Positions 7,980 through 62,318 of a stretch of 64,000 nucleotides of DNA are shown here, one piece after another (the stretch's first letter is position 1; each line of letters opens with the position of its first letter). The position numbers were made by a program, and so were the translations under genes. A model generated the notes under the pieces. The model was not told the origin of the DNA. It saw only the letters and a list, made by a program, of their open reading frames with translations, and did not search any database. Source of the DNA: a virus (taxonomy: Duplodnaviria > Caudoviricetes); IMG/VR virus record IMGVR_UViG_3300035425_000025, positions 10,103-74,102 of that record, one strand, 5' to 3'.

Positions 7980-10739
7980 TTATTTTGTCAACTTGGTTGA
8001 ATTTTTCTTTTTTTGATACATCTTTTTATTATGTTCTTTTCGTTCTTGCTGCAAACAATCATCACACCTGATTCTTTTACTGTTAGTAAGAACTTCAAGC
8101 CATTCACCGCAATCAATACATTTAATAAATTTAGTCTTCTCCACTTCAATATTTCTTTCCAAATTATTTACAATATATTGTCCATAACAGAACCATAATA
8201 ACTGTTTATATCGTTTTCCTTTACCATATAGATATTCTACTAACATATCTGTGATAGTTTCTTCTGAATATCCAAACATAGCAAATTCTTTTCGTATTTT
8301 ACAAGCAATATATCTGAGATTATCTATATATTCATCTTTCATATTGATCATATAACGGTATTGTTTGTTTAACTCATCATATAAATCAGATACCTCTTTA
8401 CTACAAATAATTTGGAGATTAGACATCATATGTTTATAATTGATACTATCTAATTTCAAACCACGAGTATTTATAGGCTTATTAGGAATTCTCTCATATA
8501 TCTTATTTACAAAACTTTCATTACGCTTTTTTACTTGTGATTTTTCTTTATCCTTTGCATATTCAAAGAAAGCTGGCAATTTGCAATTTATGTATTTAGC
8601 AATCTGTTCATTTATTTCATGAGGAAATTCTGGTTTATATAAGGTCTTTGCGTAGTCGATCACAAAATTATTTTGACAACATAATCTCTTTACACAATCA
8701 ATTGCTTCCGATTTTTCTGCATCGGTTCCAGAAATAAATACATCATCATTCCATATCTTAGAAATATTATTACTGTAAATACCAATATTCCCACCCGTAA
8801 AAGCAGCATTAAGTCCAGCATAGATATTCTTATTGTTAAGCTGAGTTGGTTCTGCCTTTCGCATATTATAGTAGAGTGGTACAATACCATTCATATTACG
8901 CTCTGCAATTCTTACAAAATCTTTATCAGCAACAACGAGACTTTTATCTCCGTCAACATCATACATCAAAATTTTACTGATTAGATCATGTGTGCTGGCA
9001 TAAATTCCATCAGTAGTAAACCATTCTCTGATATATTTTGACCTGTCTCCATAAACTTCATTGGCAACATTAAAGCGAATTGCGTGTTCCTTGTATAGAT
9101 GAGGACTTCTTAAACAATCCAATTTTTCATATCGCTTAAATAACCAACAGAATACTTCTTTATCACTTAGTAAACCAGTAGGAGTATCAATATGTCCAAA
9201 CCAATACTCACAAGCAGCATAGAAATCAGGTAGTAAAAAAGTGTATTTCCCATTTACTTCAAGTTTCCCGCTACGATATTTCTTTAAGAGACTGTTCTTT
9301 ACTTCACGGATCACATCTTTGGCATATGAATCATTCAGCAAAGCAGGGTACATTTTAACTGCTTTCTGGAATGCAGTCATATTTGTGTTATACGGTGTAA
9401 TGCCCAAAATATCCATCATAGTATCTTTAGAACTACAAACATTGCTGATCCGTTCCGCTGATTTCTGTGTAAGTAAATAAATTTCACCATCAGTAATATT
9501 TGTAAGCGTCTGAAGCATCTGATAATTTATTTTGGCATTTTTAATCCTATCTTCTTCAACATTACATTTACCGGCACTACAATGATACTTTTTGAAATCA
9601 TCTTTGTACTCATCCCATGAGTCATAATATTTGTACATCTTGAACTGACTTTTCGTAAAGATAACCTGTATATCCTCTTTAATAACATCGTATTCCTGAC
9701 CATAAATGTCTGTAATAATAGGAGAGTAGTTATTAACTTCTATAAACTTCCTAAAATTGAACACACCTAATAATCCCTTAATCCAGGGCGCACGGAACAT
9801 AAAGTTTTTACTGGAAACTGACGGCAGAATCATACCAGCTCCGTCAGTATGAGGAATTGGCACATAATCAGTTTTTCTTGTAATTGAATAATCAGTCTCA
9901 TCTACAAAGTCAAAAGTATCATATACATTAGTCTCAAAATCATCAATGACAATGGATTTATCAATATCAAATTCATTCCACTCATCAGTAGCAGAGTTTG
10001 TTAAAGCCATATAAGCCAGATGCTTATTGACATTGTTTCCACCTTTTGAATTAATTTTATCTATTGTAAGACCACACATAACAGTCTTTTCAATCTCATT
10101 CCATACAGATTCTTTAACAAATACTGCCTTCTTTTTACGGATCTGTCCTGCTGAAGAAGTAAAATACTTATATTTTTCGCCTTTATATGTAAATCCATAA
10201 AAGGATATATCCTTAAACACATCAAAATAGTAAACCTGAACCACCATTAGAGCATCAGTTAATTCATCCTGTTTAATACCAATGGTTCTACTGAGAGCAG
10301 AGTCAAACACAGATATTATATTTGTATCATTCAAACTGTCTTTTTTGATTGTACGAGTATGATCTTTTCCATCTGTTAATTCATTCTGATTAACTTTATT
10401 AGATAAAAGAGTAAGCAACTTTGCTTTTGACTCTTTCGCTTTTTCTCTTTTATGCTTAATTAACCTTGCCCAATGTAAATATTCAGAAACAGTGTCATAA
10501 GAAGATTCAGTAATATTAACTTCTTCTGTTTTATCATTTTTTAAGTTTTTAATATCATCTTCTGTATATCCAAACTGTTTCAACTGCTTTTCAATTTCTG
10601 GTAATTTATTCTGGACATAATTACGTTCTCTGCGATATTTGCAATTCATATTATGTAAATATTTCTCATGATTGCTGTAAAAATGCCCAGTATCTACAGA
10701 ATACATATTATATTGCTTATCAAGTATATATACCACCAC
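7980..10739 (-). CDS. yonO: YonO-type single-subunit DNA-dependent RNA polymerase
   Basis: 919 aa; MYDVDGDKSLV catalytic DxDGD; HTDGAG, RAPWIKG and RSPH motifs; SPbeta-like synteny. Confidence 0.9.
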   Translation of the reverse strand: MVVYILDKQYNMYSVDTGHFYSNHEKYLHNMNCKYRRERNYVQNKLPEIEKQLKQFGYTEDDIKNLKNDKTEEVNITESSYDTVSEYLHWARLIKHKREKAKESKAKLLTLLSNKVNQNELTDGKDHTRTIKKDSLNDTNIISVFDSALSRTIGIKQDELTDALMVVQVYYFDVFKDISFYGFTYKGEKYKYFTSSAGQIRKKKAVFVKESVWNEIEKTVMCGLTIDKINSKGGNNVNKHLAYMALTNSATDEWNEFDIDKSIVIDDFETNVYDTFDFVDETDYSITRKTDYVPIPHTDGAGMILPSVSSKNFMFRAPWIKGLLGVFNFRKFIEVNNYSPIITDIYGQEYDVIKEDIQVIFTKSQFKMYKYYDSWDEYKDDFKKYHCSAGKCNVEEDRIKNAKINYQMLQTLTNITDGEIYLLTQKSAERISNVCSSKDTMMDILGITPYNTNMTAFQKAVKMYPALLNDSYAKDVIREVKNSLLKKYRSGKLEVNGKYTFLLPDFYAACEYWFGHIDTPTGLLSDKEVFCWLFKRYEKLDCLRSPHLYKEHAIRFNVANEVYGDRSKYIREWFTTDGIYASTHDLISKILMYDVDGDKSLVVADKDFVRIAERNMNGIVPLYYNMRKAEPTQLNNKNIYAGLNAAFTGGNIGIYSNNISKIWNDDVFISGTDAEKSEAIDCVKRLCCQNNFVIDYAKTLYKPEFPHEINEQIAKYINCKLPAFFEYAKDKEKSQVKKRNESFVNKIYERIPNKPINTRGLKLDSINYKHMMSNLQIICSKEVSDLYDELNKQYRYMINMKDEYIDNLRYIACKIRKEFAMFGYSEETITDMLVEYLYGKGKRYKQLLWFCYGQYIVNNLERNIEVEKTKFIKCIDCGEWLEVLTNSKRIRCDDCLQQERKEHNKKMYQKKKNSTKLTK

Positions 10740-18909: not shown

Positions 18910-19170
18910 ATGAAATTATATGAATGCATAGTAGATGATGGGCAAAACGTATTCAAGACCTTGACAGCTTCTAAAAGTAAAAAAGAACTTCTTTCAGTTT
19001 ATGGCGGTAATGGTTCTTTTGAAAAAATTACCGATGTAACAAAAGATTATTTTACCAATGAATCCTCTGATAAATTAGTTTCTGATTTACAAAAATGTGG
19101 TTGGGGTAAAGGTGAAGTTGAATTAATAAGGGCATTATTAGAAGAACATATAGACAAATTAAATAAATAA
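18910..19170 (+). CDS. hypothetical early protein
   Basis: First ORF after strong promoter. Confidence 0.7.
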   Translation: MKLYECIVDDGQNVFKTLTASKSKKELLSVYGGNGSFEKITDVTKDYFTNESSDKLVSDLQKCGWGKGEVELIRALLEEHIDKLNK

Positions 19171-19230
19171 ATCCCCTGAAGAGTCTTTGAAAATTAAGAC
19201 GAAACTACCCAAAACAAGGGTAGTCGGGAT
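19171..19230 (+). ncRNA. hammerhead ribozyme (type I)
   Basis: ATCCC/GGGAT stem I, CUGAAGA core, GTCTT/AAGAC stem II, GAAA, CTACCC/GGGTAG stem III, GUC cleavage triplet at 19223-19225. Confidence 0.85.
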
Positions 19231-19671: not shown

Positions 19672-19884
19672 ATGGCAATAAAAACAAATAAAGAGTTATC
19701 ACAGGCAATAGAAGAGATAATAGAAAATAATGGTATTAAAAAAATATGGTTATCTGAAAAGGTGGGTATAGCTAATCAAAATCTAAATAGATTACTTTCT
19801 AAAAAAAGTTTATCACTTGACGATGCTAACAAAATTCTAAAGGCACTTGGATATCATGCAGAAATAATAATCGAAAAAGATTAA
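19672..19884 (+). CDS. XRE/Cro-type HTH protein
   Basis: GIKKIWLSEKVGIANQNLNRLLSKKSLSLDDANKIL. Confidence 0.8.
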   Translation: MAIKTNKELSQAIEEIIENNGIKKIWLSEKVGIANQNLNRLLSKKSLSLDDANKILKALGYHAEIIIEKD

Positions 19885-19902
19885 AAAAATTATCAAAAGT
19901 GA

Positions 19903-19931
19903 TTGACAAGTAAAGGCAAATAGTCTATAAT
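19903..19931 (+). promoter_or_regulatory. consensus sigma-A promoter
   Basis: TTGACA-17bp-TATAAT. Confidence 0.85.
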
Positions 19932-19937
19932 AATACT

Positions 19938-20930
19938 TGTAAGGAACACAAGGGAAATCAAAAATCGGTATCACGGCAGCATCAATAAGTCCAGGAGCGA
20001 TAAAAGAAAAATCCCCGTTCCAAACGAAACAGGGAAATTTCGGAAAAGCGTATAAAACACTTTTACCCTAGACAAGTAAAGTGTAACGCATTTCTGATAA
20101 TCTGTCAATCGGCAGATATTTCCCAAAACAAAGTAACTATTAACGTCCTGTAAAGTGGAGTGCTAACAGGATCGTAACTAAGGCAAAGCAACAAGAGATT
20201 GCAAACGAGGTTAGAGAAAAGATAATTGATCATCTAATCATCCCAATAGGGAAAACGTGAAAAGAGATACCAGCGTAAAAATGGACTATGGTTCCGGCCA
20301 TCTGACTACATCGTGGAAAACAGGGGATACAAACCTGTTTAGACGTAGCAGCGAATGCCATCGCAAACCGGAAAAACTACATTATGTGTCTGAAAATGAC
20401 AAGAGTTTGTCAAGTGCTGATTCTGAACTTGTGATCTGTGATAGCGTGGTGCTAGTAGCGGAAGTGAGAGACAGTGACTTTCACATTGGAATTAGCATAT
20501 GTCTGTATCTTAGCGGTGCAGTAGGTAGGGACACGGTGAAAAAGGGCGTATGATAAACCATTAAATAGACAGTTATTGTAAACCATGGAAAGAGCCGAGT
20601 ATAAAAGAATCGGTGATTATCGGTGCAGATAATTAATTTTAGAACGGATAAAACCTTAGAGAGTGTCAAGTAACAATGGCACTCTCTTCATTATTAAAAG
20701 CGGTCAACTGCTTTTCAAAAAGGAATGTGATGTTCAAGCGAAAAATAAGAAGCAACAAAAGCAATACATAGTTTTATTATTTACCATACCCATAAAAACA
20801 GAATCAAACGTGAGGCGGTGCGGAAAGCTGGTAAACCAACGGGTAACAACCGGGACATAGCCATTAAAGCCGGAAGCATTTAGCCATATCCCTTGAAAAG
20901 TCTCTTTTGTGGGCATGGATAAGTAATAAA
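19938..20930 (+). ncRNA. candidate ~1-kb structured ncRNA
   Basis: Follows a consensus promoter; no ORF with RBS; more than 12 hairpins. Confidence 0.5.
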
Positions 20931-20992
20931 AAGGTTTTAAATGATTCAATAATCTGTTATAATTAGAATATCAATAGAAAAGTTGGTGTAAA

Positions 20993-21307
20993 ATGATAAC
21001 GATAGAACAGTTAAAGGCAATAAATAAACCTGAAAACATAGCAGTAACAGAACATGCTAGAATCCGTCTTTATGAACGAAATATTAGCATTGATGATATT
21101 GTAAATGGTATAAATACAGGCGAAATTATAAAACAGTATCCAGACGATAAACCACTAGCAAGTTGTTTGGTATTGGGATTTTCTGTTAAATCACAGTATA
21201 TTCATATAGTAGTAAGTTGTGATACAGATTTTATATATCTTATAACTGCATATTTTCCCGATCCTGATATGTGGGAAAGTGATTTTAAGACAAGAAAGGG
21301 GCGTTAA
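20993..21307 (+). CDS. DUF4258 domain protein (putative RelE-like toxin)
   Basis: TEHARIRLYERNISIDDI...IIKQYPDDKPLASCLVLG...LITAYFPD. Confidence 0.8.
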   Translation: MITIEQLKAINKPENIAVTEHARIRLYERNISIDDIVNGINTGEIIKQYPDDKPLASCLVLGFSVKSQYIHIVVSCDTDFIYLITAYFPDPDMWESDFKTRKGR

Positions 21308-21309
21308 TT

Positions 21310-21537
21310 ATGGTATGTATGGAATGCGGAGCAAAAGCCGAAAAGGGATATACAACAAGCGTAACAGATTTAGGGAACCGCCTTTTAATCGTGCGGAATG
21401 TCCCTTGTTATAAGTGTACAGAATGTAATGAGGTTATCTATACAGGGGATGTTATTAAAAGATTGGAGCAGATCACAGAACAGGCGAAACAATTTACACA
21501 GGAAATTTCTATTGTAAATTATAGTAGTGCTGCATGA
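21310..21537 (+). CDS. YgiT/MqsA-type zinc-finger protein (putative antitoxin)
   Basis: CMECG...IVRNVPCYKCTECNEVIY. Confidence 0.8.
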   Translation: MVCMECGAKAEKGYTTSVTDLGNRLLIVRNVPCYKCTECNEVIYTGDVIKRLEQITEQAKQFTQEISIVNYSSAA

Positions 21538-21697
21538 TGGGATTGTAAGGAAATAAGTATGGACAGTATAAAAGGATTGGTTTTTCCAGTCCTTTTTGTT
21601 TTGAAAATAAATAATAAAAAGCATTAAAAATATAAAAATAGTGCTTGACAATGCACTGTTAATACACTATAATAGAAAATGTAAGGAGGGTTAGCGA

Positions 21698-21853
21698 ATG
21701 GCAAAACCGAAACAGAATACCCAACGGTTAGTCGTTTATATATCTCCTGAGTTAGAAAAATCATTGCAAGATGAAGCCGAAAAGAAAGGCACTAATGTTT
21801 CAAATCTAGTAAGGATGATTTTAACAAAAAGAGAAGAAAAAAAGGCTAACTAA
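21698..21853 (+). CDS. CopG/RHH regulator (51 aa), missed by ORF track
   Basis: AAGGAGG RBS; RLVVYISPELEKSLQDEAEKKGTNVSNLVRMIL; TTGACA-17-TATAAT upstream. Confidence 0.8.
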   Translation: MAKPKQNTQRLVVYISPELEKSLQDEAEKKGTNVSNLVRMILTKREEKKAN

Positions 21854-22218
21854 ATGTGGAAGCTGTCAACGACCGCAAATCATAGAACAGCTCCCACGCA
21901 ACCGCCAAACGCTGCAAACGTAGGCTTTAAACCTACTCACGATTGGACAATCTTATTATATCAGTTCTTTCAAGATTATTCAATCAAAAATCCACTTTAC
22001 AGATTGAACCTTGACAATTTCATAGGTAATGCGTAAAGCATCAAGATCACTTGCCTAAAAGAAGTGGTTAAGGTAGTTGCAGACTTTCCGAAACAACCGG
22101 AGAAGCAACAGAGCATTAACAGGCTGCTGAGACTCCCTATAATGGAAAGAAGTGGGAATAACTGTTAAAGTCTCTACAAGAAAATGAGACTAAATAAACA
22201 CATATTGATATTAAGGGC

Positions 22219-22572
22219 TTGCATCCGTCAAAAGTTGCAAGCTCATTTCAAGAAAATGGAGAAAGTGAGGATGATAGTATGGCGAGAAAATCAGCGTGGG
22301 ATAAATTCTTTGATGATACAGAAGACATCCAATGTATTTCTTGTTTGGATGCTTATGTATTGAAATATTTCATTGATAATTGCTGTGTACAAATAGACAG
22401 ACATTCAAGTGATAAGGATAGCAAATTTACGCTTAGTATAAGAGGATATGACGAAGAAAATAAGAAAGATTTATATGAAAGTGATTTCAGTAGGGAATGG
22501 AAAGAAAGGAATGTTTACAATCAGGCATTAGTTAAGAAGTTTGTAAGCGGATATTTCTTTTATTTGCAATAA
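22219..22572 (+). CDS. hypothetical protein (start probably near 22270-22279)
   Basis: ORF track; GAGG RBS. Confidence 0.6.
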   Translation: MHPSKVASSFQENGESEDDSMARKSAWDKFFDDTEDIQCISCLDAYVLKYFIDNCCVQIDRHSSDKDSKFTLSIRGYDEENKKDLYESDFSREWKERNVYNQALVKKFVSGYFFYLQ

Positions 22573-22894: not shown

Positions 22895-23083
22895 GGAATA
22901 ACGCAATGAAAGGGATATTTAAAGGCAGATGGAAAATAAAACCGTCTGCCTTACTTGTTATAATGCAGCCTGAAAGCCTGATCAACTTTCAGACAGTCCA
23001 CAGTCTGTAAAATGCAGATGGTAACAAGAAAATAATAGAGAAATAGTTATTGCTACATAGACAATCAAAGAAAGGTTAAAACG

Positions 23084-23623
23084 GTGGAAATTATGTTAAG
23101 AATCTATTTAACAAACTTAGGCAAGTACAATGAAGGTCAGTTAATCGGTGAATGGGTAGAATTTCCATGTACAGATGATGAACTGGAAGAAGCTAAAGAA
23201 AGAATCGGGATCAGCGATGAACCAGACGAAAACGGAAACTATTATGAAGAGTGGTTTATTACAGATTATGAAACCGACATTCACGGCTTGACAGTTGGCG
23301 AGTATGACAATTTAGACGAATTAAACGAACTTGCGGAAACTTTAGACGATCTGGACGAGTACGAGCGAGAAATTGTAGAAGCTATGATTTCTGAAGGTTA
23401 TTCTTTAGAAGACGCAATCAACAAAAAAGAAGATTGTATGATTTATTATAACTGTGAAGATATGGAAGACGTGGCAAGAGAATATGTAGAGGAAACAGGA
23501 CTTCTTGATAGTATTCCAGAAAATCTGCAAAGTTATTTTGATTTTGAGGCATATGGGCGCGATATGAGTTTTGAAGGACATTTTGTATTTACTAATAAAG
23601 GAAATTGTGTGCAGATTTTATGA
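23084..23623 (+). CDS. ardA: antirestriction protein ArdA
   Basis: RIYLTNLGKYNEGQLIGEW...EEWFITDYE...YFDFEAYGRD; very acidic. Confidence 0.9.
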   Translation: MEIMLRIYLTNLGKYNEGQLIGEWVEFPCTDDELEEAKERIGISDEPDENGNYYEEWFITDYETDIHGLTVGEYDNLDELNELAETLDDLDEYEREIVEAMISEGYSLEDAINKKEDCMIYYNCEDMEDVAREYVEETGLLDSIPENLQSYFDFEAYGRDMSFEGHFVFTNKGNCVQIL

Positions 23624-54346: not shown

Positions 54347-54458
54347 ATGAGTGATAAAAAGATGAAAAGAGATGATTTAGGGAAATCGTATGAAAACATT
54401 TTATGAGAAGATTCCTAATACAAGATTAATGAGAAGGAATATTTTAAGAATTGAGTAA
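54347..54458 (+). pseudogene. 5' remnant of a Thg1-like gene with 1-nt insertion
   Basis: MKRDDLG/NRMKTFYEKIPNTRLMRR across GGG-AAA-T; stop overlaps LAGLIDADG start. Confidence 0.65.
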
Positions 54459-55527
54459 AAGAATTATTTTGGACAAAAATGAGCTGCACCAAAAATATGT
54501 AGTGGAGAAATTATCACAAGCTAAAACTGCAAAATACTTTAATTGTTCTATTGACACTGTTGTAAGAAACTTAAAAGATTATGGGATAAAAGCTCATAAA
54601 CAAGGATCTTGGCGTGTTTCAAATAGAGTAGAATTGTCAGAATATCAAAGAAATAAGTTATGTGGTGCACTATTAGGCGATGGTAGTCTGATAAAGTGTA
54701 AGAACGGTATAAATGCACAGTTTACATATGTTTCAAAATCAAAGCAACATGTTGAGTTTGTATGTAAGGATTTTATAGATTATTCATATAAAGAGGGAAT
54801 AAGAAAGTATGAATATATTGATAAAAGAACAAAGAAGCAGTATTTACGGTATACGTTTAGAACGATTACAGATCAAGGATTTACTGCTGAATATTATAGG
54901 TGGTATAAAAATGGAATTAAGCATATTCCAGAAGATTTAATTTTAAATCCCTTAATATGTTTAATTTGGTATATAGGAGATGGTAGCATATGCAACTCTT
55001 CTAAAAATAATAGTCAATGTATAAAAATTGCCACTAATTGTTTTGATAAAAACGAGCAAGAAAGAATTTTACTTCCTCAATTATCTGATTTTGGTGCAAG
55101 ATTATGTAAGGCTGGCAAAAATAAATCAACTAACAAATATCAATATGCAATTTACATTCCTAAAAAGAAAATGGAACAGTTCTTTGAATTTATTGGAGAA
55201 TGTCCATTTCCTGATTATAAATATAAATGGGATTATAAAGAGAAATTTTATCCATCTTATGAAGATTATTATGAAGAATGGAAAAAGTTGTATTTAAATG
55301 GAATGGGTTACACGCATATTGCTAGATTATATGGAGCAGATAATACAACAGTTCTAAAATATTTAAGAAAAGTTGGAATATATAAGAGATTTGAGGGATA
55401 CAAGCAATTTTATAAGGAATGGGAAGATATGTTTATTTCTGGAATGAAATACTATGATATAGCCAAAAAATATAATTGCTGTTCTCAAACCGTATTACAT
55501 CATTTAAGACAAGTAAATTTATTTTAG
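54451..55527 (+). CDS. LAGLIDADG homing endonuclease with flanking HTH domains
   Basis: LCGALLGDGSL and IWYIGDGS motifs; KIATNCF. Confidence 0.85.
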   Translation: MSKRIILDKNELHQKYVVEKLSQAKTAKYFNCSIDTVVRNLKDYGIKAHKQGSWRVSNRVELSEYQRNKLCGALLGDGSLIKCKNGINAQFTYVSKSKQHVEFVCKDFIDYSYKEGIRKYEYIDKRTKKQYLRYTFRTITDQGFTAEYYRWYKNGIKHIPEDLILNPLICLIWYIGDGSICNSSKNNSQCIKIATNCFDKNEQERILLPQLSDFGARLCKAGKNKSTNKYQYAIYIPKKKMEQFFEFIGECPFPDYKYKWDYKEKFYPSYEDYYEEWKKLYLNGMGYTHIARLYGADNTTVLKYLRKVGIYKRFEGYKQFYKEWEDMFISGMKYYDIAKKYNCCSQTVLHHLRQVNLF

Positions 55528-61100: not shown

Positions 61101-62318
61101 ATAAAAGTAGAAAGGCGTGAGCAAATAATCATACGAAAGAATCATCCAAAATTCAAAGTTATAGATCAACAGTGTTTTCATTCTAAGAATCTTTACAATG
61201 AAGCAAATTATGAAATAAGACAGAAATTCATAAATAACGGAGAATATATATCATATAACAAAATGAATTTTGAATTTAAGACACACGAAAATTACAAACT
61301 TACATTCAGTCAACCAGCGAATTGTACTCTAAGAGTTTTAGATAAAAACTGGAAATCCTATTTCAGAGCAATAAAAGACTGGAAGAATAATCCGTCAAAA
61401 TATCTTGGTATGCCTAAGTTGCCAAAGTATTTAAAAAAGGACGGTAGGTTTCCTTGGATGATTCCCAATAATCAGTTGGTCTATGACTATGAAAAAGGAA
61501 CGGTTTATATCAGGAACAGATTACTTAATGATTATGAATGGAAATGTCGCTGCCTTGGCAGAATCATTCAAGTCAGATTTATTCCAAAAGGTTCCTGTTA
61601 TGTAATGGAAATTGTCTATGAAACAGAAGTTCCAGATGTAAAAACAGAAAGCAATCGCATAGCAAGTATTGATTTGGGTGTAGATAATCTTGTAACTATG
61701 ACAAATAATATCGGTTTGAATCCAATTATTATTAACGGCAAGGGAATCAAAAGTATCAATCAATACTATAACAAACGATTGGCGAAAGAAAAATCTTTAT
61801 TGAAAATACGTCATGGAAAAGACTGGTCTAAGAAACTGGATTCTATTACATTTAAAAGATATCAGAGGATCAAGAACTATATGCACAATGCAAGTGCTTG
61901 TGTAGTGAAGTGGTGTGCAGAAAATGATATTGACACTTTGGTAGTAGGCAAGAATAAGGAATGGAAACAGAGTATAGATATGGGTAAACAAAGCAATCAG
62001 AAGTTTGTGAGTATTCCTTATCAGATGTTGTTACAGCAACTCAAATATAAATGTGAAAATGTTGGAATTAAATATATTGAAACTGAGGAGAGTTATTCTT
62101 CAGGAACAAGTTTCTTAGATGGAGAAGAAACTATTAAACAGAATTACGATAAGTCAAGACGGATAGAAAGAGGGTTGTTTAGAAGTAACTCTGGATTGCT
62201 TATCAATAGTGATGTAAACGGATCATTACAAATTATGATGAAGGTATTCCCAAATGCGTTCAATGAGCGATATGGGATAGAGGGTGTTCTAACCCCTATA
62301 GTTATAAATGCAGCGTAA
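61101..62318 (+). mobile_element. tnpB: solo TnpB RNA-guided nuclease (IS200/IS605-type, no TnpA)
   Basis: SIDLGVDNL, LVVGKN...ETEESYSS, NSDVNGSLQI; frame open upstream to ATA 61101 after GGAGGTG. Confidence 0.9.

Follow-up and report, generated by a model that had tools for sequence, protein, structure and literature searches.

We analyzed a 64,000-nt window of a virus record (IMG/VR IMGVR_UViG_3300035425_000025, positions 10,103 to 74,102) and within it a stretch of about 1 kb at 19903–20930, which an earlier reading of the letters alone (the original prediction) had described as a hairpin-dense non-coding transcript behind a consensus promoter. The source record is 74 kb long with a G+C content of ~31%, and the carrier is a large temperate phage of the mouse gut. 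The stretch is a non-coding RNA gene, neither a decayed open reading frame (ORF) nor a plain 5′ untranslated region (UTR). The earlier picture of a single 990-nt RNA closed by a long-range helix does not hold; instead, the stretch is a chain of five exchangeable modules, with a convergent antisense RNA gene in the first of them. The features of the unit and of the regulator gene that precedes it are listed here in window coordinates, with related loci in other records referred to by L and G numbers.

19672–19884, + strand: Cro/C1-type helix-turn-helix (HTH) gene, 70 aa, always 5′ of the RNA unit (Pfam HTH_26 and HTH_3 matches)
19903–19931, + strand: sense promoter TTGACA-17-TATAAT, score 12/12, predicted start near 19938
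19938–20141, + strand: leader, ~200 nt, fold z = −5.8, conserved in the window, L003, L002, L050, L053, and L057
20003–20073, − strand: predicted antisense RNA of ~70 nt with two stem-loops and a terminator hairpin (20035–20012) plus U run, from promoter and terminator prediction
20080–20108, − strand: antisense promoter TTGACA-17-TACACT (TATACT with TG in sister copies)
20142–20640, + strand: structured RNA body, ~500 nt, identified by covariation, with helices H1–H7 and H9 well supported in 20142–20450
20658–20687, + strand: terminator-like hairpin of 11 bp, 5 G-C, with an interrupted U tail, conserved behind body types 1, 2, and 3
20696–20764, + strand: module B, a hairpin (AAAAGC..GCTTTT) with an A-rich tail, recurring in L002, L003, L006, L012, L050, L053, and L057
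20765–20931, + strand: module C, a structured element of ~165 nt with sharp mosaic borders, homologous in L003, L057, L002, L006, and L004

The consensus promoter is where the original prediction had placed it, and in 13/13 related loci a sense promoter lies 10–30 nt behind the stop codon of the HTH gene. The claim that no ORF led by a ribosome-binding site follows over ~990 nt also stands, as all six frames are closed. Indeed, TAA, TAG, and TGA each occur in all six frames across 19900–20995, and therefore no stop reassignment opens any frame, which rules out stop-codon recoding. A 98-aa ORF at 20257–20553 was rejected as a gene: it lacks a Shine–Dalgarno (SD) motif, has no Pfam or PHROG match, and is unconserved, being broken by frameshifting indels and by 3–10 stops in every homologue that is not near-identical. 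The argument that the transcript is not merely a 5′ UTR is likewise supported, in that the stretch is a non-coding RNA gene in an early, anti-defence-flavored region. No repeats or small-RNA array were found inside the region; the array that had been proposed is only a loose fit, the modules being unlike each other and not repeats. Over the whole 998 nt, the folding energy gives z = −3.4 for the + strand and −2.4 for the − strand. The strong evidence for a structured RNA is covariation, not folding energy.

Homologues of the HTH gene, at 42–100% identity, anchor all related loci. The hunt for homologues comprised neighbor-protein searches and DNA-pattern scans of IMG/VR; GTDB genomes and JGI metagenomes were each scanned once. 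It yielded 10 copies of the body in 7 sequence clusters, from nine viral contigs and one contig of a metagenome-assembled genome (MAG). The window copy clusters with L003 (92% identity); the remaining clusters are L004 (72%), L005, L052, the group L050/L053/L057, and those of a contig (G004/L021) that has two tandem copies, at 78% and 74%. Proviruses carry the body RNA in at least four genome-derived records. Besides L012 and L021, hunts with 17-mers and two-block patterns returned only chance matches in high-GC DNA; the JGI metagenome scan gave no true homologue; among 401 genomes of the order to which the body-carrying MAG belongs, only that MAG was positive; and a loop-motif pattern found 8 new loci, none of them a member by covariance model. 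Our covariance model R1, which describes domain 1 of the body (20142–20304) with four hand-placed helices, found no copy in L006–L011, L002, L069, or L071. The gene-free stretches behind the HTH gene in those loci are therefore other sequences.

In alignments of the body, conserved blocks alternate with stems in which both strands vary in concert. The overall identity of conserved copies is 72–78%, and compensatory changes are concentrated in stems: a consensus fold of five copies by RNAalifold has 108 pairs, 38 of them with compensatory changes. R1 scores the ten copies at 135–188 bits, and in the alignment based on it 90.3% of cells are paired, compared with 35–41% in slid controls, in which the 3′ partners were moved by 1–3 columns. 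Compensatory changes occur at 11 pairs of the same alignment versus 2–4 in the slid controls, and 0/500 shuffles reach the observed values. Separate folding of each copy between conserved anchors produced identical hairpins (H3–H7) from 3–7 different stem sequences per helix, with six versions of H3, seven of the inner hairpin H6, and five of H7, whose AAUNCCA loop is constant. Stem sequences also vary among copies in H4 and in the outer helix H5, and H9 appears as CAAGU/ACUUG, CGGU/ACCG, or UGGU/ACCA. In a held-out test, five copies served to derive the structure and the remaining five to score it; 78% of cells over 20140–20450 were paired (25–42% when slid), with 18 compensated pairs against 5–9. 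Thus, the comparison of homologues that the original prediction had named as a check revealed compensatory changes in the body helices. The many G-U pairs place the RNA on the + strand.

Two of the hairpins picked out earlier by eye, TCCTGT/ACAGGA and AAACAGG/CCTGTTT, are real and covarying; they are H1 and H6. A third, TGACAA/TTGTCA, is present, but it is specific to the window and unsupported. The H1 loop contains a GGA that had brought a CsrA sponge to mind; inspection by eye showed this GGA to be unconserved in L004 and L005, and that candidate was dropped.

Covariation also bears on whether the stretch might be functionless filler, a decayed gene or recombination scar with chance promoters and hairpins. 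Such an origin would suit a mosaic region with sharp recombination borders, the modest folding-energy z scores of the body and of module C, and the 98-aa ORF of the window. The ORF, however, is unconserved; promoter, antisense promoter, and terminator recur in this layout in loci of unlike sequence; and conserved blocks persist at 72–78% identity, with stem-concentrated compensatory changes. We consider filler extremely unlikely, covariation having largely refuted it.

A large ornate RNA is recognized by a length of >400 nt, the absence of coding, and many covariation-supported helices, and the body shows all three, with its ~500 nt, its closed frames, and helices H1–H7 and H9. We compared the region with Rfam 15, whose families include GOLLD, ROOL, OLE, HEARO, raiA, group I and II introns, RNase P, tmRNA, 6S, and c4. 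The region had no match at gathering scores, and at E ≤ 10 only sub-threshold chance matches appeared, on the minus strand or below 21 bits; three divergent homologous loci had no match at E ≤ 1. The covariance-model check suggested by the original prediction thus returned no family, and, judged by these comparisons, the body is an RNA of a new family. Our search of full-text literature found no description of it. A catalogue of candidate structured RNAs from IMG/VR (PMC10690425), with a mean length of 67 nt, could hold fragments of the body.

By kind, the body belongs with the large ornate phage RNAs GOLLD and ROOL, while being a member of neither family. Those RNAs of phages and prophages constitute Rfam families and have structures solved by cryo-electron microscopy (PMC12286853). 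The body resembles them in being phage-borne, several hundred nucleotides long, non-coding, and built of many helices with conserved single-stranded blocks. It differs in lacking any match, by sequence or structure, to either model at a cutoff as loose as E ≤ 10, in its narrower occurrence (the nine viral contigs and one MAG contig), and in its setting behind a small regulator gene and an antisense-bearing leader, where it is exchangeable with protein genes.

The leader contains no ATG. In the window, it has a purine-rich SD-like motif near its 5′ end, a hairpin at 20012–20035, and a 3′ end in UUUCCCAAAAC; every leader type begins with a purine-rich UAAGG(G)AA motif, which no start codon follows, and has the 3′ end UUCCCAAAAC. 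The hairpins ACACTTTTAC/GTAAAGTGT and ATCTG/CAGAT of the original prediction are present here. In the sense RNA, hairpin 20012–20035 competes with a leader-closing helix (20032–20038/20118–20124), which is 10 bp in L050, L053, and L057. The −35 box of the antisense promoter is invariant across an alignment of six leaders of the window type (W-type), and leader types of unlike sequence have a minus-strand promoter at the equivalent relative place. Among 13 related loci, this convergent promoter lies 110–180 nt past the sense promoter in nine and further off in the other four, and several have a minus-strand hairpin and U tract between the two promoters. The convergent layout is shared by at least three leader types that cannot be aligned in sequence with one another. 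The predicted antisense RNA folds at −28.9 kcal/mol (z = −5.8) and is fully complementary to leader positions ~66–136; its counterparts in L021 and L004 (z = −4.8 and −3.0) keep the same layout of two hairpins and a U tract. A weak Rfam match to L10_leader (27.6 bits; gathering score 44) is the antisense terminator.

An inverted repeat at 19906–19940 places one arm in the spacer of the sense promoter and the other at +1 to +15. It is found at the same place in L004, L005, and L021, where its position is constant and its sequence depends on the leader type (ACAAGTA/TACTTGT, TCCCTT/AAGGGA, ACTTCCC/GGGAAGT, ACTTGA/TCAAGT). Possible readings are an operator and a hairpin formed only in read-through RNA from the HTH gene.

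It is useful to set this leader beside known antisense systems. Countertranscript systems of Gram-positive mobile elements include pCF10 prgQ/Anti-Q, pIP501 RNAIII, and pT181 RNAI. As in those systems, the unit belongs to a Firmicutes mobile element, has convergent promoters ~100–200 bp apart, and has a short, stem-loop-rich, terminator-ended antisense RNA against the leader of a long transcript; indeed, the convergent promoter and such an antisense RNA are kept across unlike leader types. There, however, the antisense RNA induces an attenuator before protein genes, that is, a sense-strand intrinsic terminator just past the antisense target. Here, none was found at that place, and the gated product is a non-coding RNA. 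The phage immunity antisense RNAs, namely P22 sar (in the arc-ant region), P1/P7 c4, and P4 CI, are also small RNAs of an early or immunity region beside small Arc/Cro-type regulators, and the regulator slot of the window and its relatives holds both HTH and ribbon-helix-helix (RHH) genes. Those RNAs act on the ribosome-binding site of an antirepressor mRNA or bring about termination, whereas here there is no ORF to repress, and Rfam gave no c4 match in the region. Nor does the unit look like a type I toxin-antitoxin system, for which a small hydrophobic toxin ORF with a ribosome-binding site was sought on the sense RNA: the leader is without ATG, the body is without a conserved ORF, and a mini-ORF of module B is frameshifted in L057.

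What follows the leader is not constant. Behind an identical HTH gene and W-type leader, public assemblies show three alternatives: body type 1; an unrelated ORF-free body of ~480 nt with the same terminator behind it (L069; 95% identity to L002:3248–3767); and an antitoxin/ParE pair with a new promoter (L071). The homology breaks directly 3′ of UUUCCCAAAA, and in the comparisons with L071 and L069 the break falls at window 20132–20136. A sister leader stands before the body in L004; in L005, the gene behind it encodes a 58-aa protein and has a good ribosome-binding site. In G004, the second body lies directly behind an RHH gene, and L021 contains further units of RHH gene plus leader, so that the cassette occurs several times within a few kilobases. 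Since the same HTH gene and leader stand before unrelated bodies or protein genes, the leader looks like a generic gate and cassette, and the RNA body looks like a swappable payload.

Body type 3 (L069:2991–3510 and L002:3248–3767) is represented by two near-identical copies only, with fold z = −1.6. The window also holds a second unit, composed of a 12/12 promoter (21645–21673), an Arc-like RHH gene (21698–21853), and then ~390 nt of ORF-free RNA, extending to 22250. Its leader is 85% identical to the RHH-following leader in L021 and bears a TG-extended minus-strand promoter at 21983–21955, and its 3′ hairpin (~22213–22250) is 96–98% identical to sites in L002 and L005.

The geometry of leader and antisense RNA is strikingly like that of ColE1, where a long structured sense RNA faces an antisense RNA of ~100 nt directed against its 5′ end. 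By that analogy, the long RNA would be an RNA II-like primer of an RNA-primed origin, and the short one would provide RNA I-like copy-number control. The window supplies a long sense RNA from a strong promoter, a stem-loop antisense RNA of 70–95 nt over its 5′ leader, a switch in gene orientation and GC skew 2 kb away, and a ParB-type gene nearby. In a ColE1-type origin, however, the cassette should be single and tied to the origin, and the sense RNA should run unterminated up to it. Here, the leader-plus-antisense cassette is generic, stands also before protein genes and unrelated bodies, and is repeated within a few kilobases, which fits a gene-expression gate and not copy-number control. 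In addition, a terminator closes the RNA, several carriers have been classified as integrated proviruses, the surroundings contain neither iterons nor a cluster of DnaA boxes (whose count equals that of chance), and the multi-helix fold is conserved well past the needs of a primer. We therefore regard an RNA-primed origin as very unlikely.

At its 3′ end, the body is followed by the terminator-like hairpin, which corresponds to the GAGAGTGTCA/TGGCACTCTC hairpin of the original prediction. Most transcripts probably stop at this hairpin, at a length of ~750 nt. In G004, the copies are closed by a canonical terminator that has five U. Module B occurs once in the window, and its mini-ORF is unconserved, the frame being shifted by a 1-nt deletion in L057. 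The AAAAGC/GCTTTT hairpin noted earlier belongs to this module; it is conserved but without covariation. In module C, compensatory changes affect 12/41 predicted pairs and there are three versions of the apical hairpin, whereas the folding energy is unremarkable (z = −0.14). The module is without a promoter of its own, and the many G-U pairs ruled out placing it on the minus strand. The long-range ACCCATAAAA/TTTTGTGGGC pairing proposed earlier lies here: L004 retains most of this stem, built from a different sequence, but the pairing closes only this ~165-nt module. Beyond it are the following features.

20936–20963, + strand: promoter of the next genes, TTTAAA-16-TATAAT with TG, from the promoter scan; it confirms the downstream TG-TATAAT promoter of the original prediction
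20993–21537, + strand: DUF4258 protein (104 aa; Pfam DUF4258, E = 2e-24) and 75-aa zinc-finger protein (phrog_29304, E = 3e-18), a toxin-antitoxin-like pair

The DUF4258/zinc-finger pair is outside the RNA unit, and sister phages have other genes in its position.

Contigs from four metatranscriptome runs, belonging to four studies, lie on the region; they are assembled and lack strand or end information. One of 468 nt lies wholly on 20155–20623, and others cover 20360–20817 and 20502–20768. Contigs from these runs diverge exactly at the borders of module C (20764/5 and 20931–33). The reading of these runs covers the parts of the region with contigs, and the contigs fit transcription of the region without proving it.

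Taken together, we judge it reasonably probable that the stretch encodes a countertranscript-gated, terminator-ended, trans-acting structured RNA. Our best guess is that the body is a stable early RNA that acts in trans, its output thresholded by the countertranscript. The consensus sigma-A promoter would produce an RNA from ~19938 whose first ~200 nt serve as a regulatory leader, while the weaker convergent promoter within that leader would produce the ~70-nt antisense RNA with its two stem-loops and terminator. Together, the strong sense promoter and the antisense gene would form a threshold gate. At low sense transcription, as in a lysogen or upon leaky firing, the antisense RNA would pair with the leader, beginning at the complementary hairpin loops. 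This pairing would block the leader-closing helix 20032–20038/20118–20124 and offer a long duplex to RNase III, whose cut would leave a body without its 5′ end, to be degraded. Full sense firing would outrun and interfere with the antisense promoter, allowing the folded body to accumulate. Transcripts would end at hairpin 20658–20687, with read-through adding modules B and C. In trans, the body would be a stable structured RNA that binds a protein or self-assembles.

The gate logic is suggested by the convergent promoters of unequal strength, the fully complementary two-hairpin antisense RNA, and the competing leader folds, and we infer the gate from its likeness to switches of the prgQ/Anti-Q type and to antisense control that depends on RNase III. 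The promoters, the terminators, the lack of coding, the conserved fold, the modularity, and the occurrence in RNA libraries are direct findings, whereas we infer the timing, the antisense mechanism, and the action in trans. A more specific proposal, in which we place little confidence, is that the folded RNA is an anti-defence or host-takeover effector, one of several interchangeable RNA or protein payloads behind a common regulator and antisense gate, and that it sequesters or mimics a host factor, possibly self-assembling as ROOL and GOLLD do.

Several observations weigh against the trans-acting, gated RNA that we favor. The family is small, with its 7 sequence clusters from one habitat, and the covariation statistics therefore rest on few independent events. 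Over 20450–20700, the held-out test shows nothing (47% versus 33–48%), and support for the 3′ third of the body is confined to type-1 copies and does not extend to type-2; the folding energy of the body alone reaches only z = −2.1. No + strand terminator-like site, and thus no sense-strand attenuator, was found in 19938–20657, which makes the antisense mechanism a guess. The depth of the RNA-run contigs resembles that of flanking genes, and these contigs could come from contaminating DNA. Finally, the U tract of the window terminator is poor (TCATTATTAA), and no terminator is seen after the body in L004 and L005. Much transcription may therefore run on, which would favor a role in cis.

Such a role would make the stretch a cis-acting leader of the early operon, whose folded RNA modifies RNA polymerase (processive antitermination, in the manner of put or EAR) or controls read-through or stability of the rightward transcript. 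This agrees with the position of the unit, close to where a long series of + strand genes begins, with the terminators just described, and with the finding of none between 20931 and the promoter of the next genes. The downstream genes, however, have promoters of their own, several of consensus quality (20936, 21645, and 22116), and the genes behind the unit vary among phages. The copies in G004 are in tandem and end in strong terminators, and the antitermination RNAs known so far measure 70–120 nt, not 500. On balance, a cis-acting leader is an unlikely explanation.

The trans-acting RNA may be of interest for several reasons. Very few large structured phage RNAs are known, and the function of GOLLD and ROOL is still open. 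The body RNA is testable through its defined promoter, terminator, and antisense regulator, its carriage by proviruses, and its natural payload swaps. Indeed, a natural swap behind the same leader is in effect a ready-made complementation experiment, and it suggests that the RNA does a job that proteins can also do in that slot. As the carrier phage is often present in mouse-gut metagenomes, both material and transcriptomes are available. More broadly, if the payload idea is true, gut phages may carry in their early regions a whole class of RNA effectors overlooked by protein-centered annotation.

The runs containing the stretch are mouse-gut metagenomes from ~10 studies. The exact HTH protein occurs in 204 blocks of public assemblies, the matches listed being from metagenomes, mouse gut among them, and a blastn search for relatives among cultured phages gave no match in 50,697 phage records. 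Genes are oriented leftward up to ~17.6 kb and rightward from ~18.8 kb, and the RNA unit therefore lies ~1–2 kb into the rightward, presumably early, region. Small genes of that region carry individual consensus promoters (18793, 19903, and 21645), and the antirestriction gene ardA (23084–23623) lies 2 kb 3′ of the unit. This arrangement recalls Aca-controlled anti-defence operons (PMC13551039), in which small HTH or RHH regulators likewise stand beside strong early promoters, with structured RNA motifs directly after the start and anti-defence neighbors. Here, however, the regulator is upstream of the promoter, there is no acr gene, and the payload is an RNA.

Elsewhere, the window encodes ParB, DUF3825, two tyrosine recombinases, four tRNAs, ArdA, TnpB, a LAGLIDADG endonuclease, and a YonO-type RNA polymerase. 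The last is a single-subunit enzyme with a PF05183 match (7980–10739, − strand). A tie between it and the RNA was ruled out, as a close homologue is present in only one of five related phage records with the HTH gene or the RNA in common. TnpB (61263–62318, with OrfB_IS605 and Cas12f-like TNB domains) and the LAGLIDADG homing endonuclease (54451–55527) both lie within the phage. Right behind the first early gene, hammerhead models match 19158–19230 at 20–26 bits (E ~0.4), too low for a ribozyme call. The twister-P1 model matches 22957–23025, 55 nt upstream of ardA, at 48.4 bits (E = 1e-8; gathering score 67.2), and this site is probably a divergent twister ribozyme.

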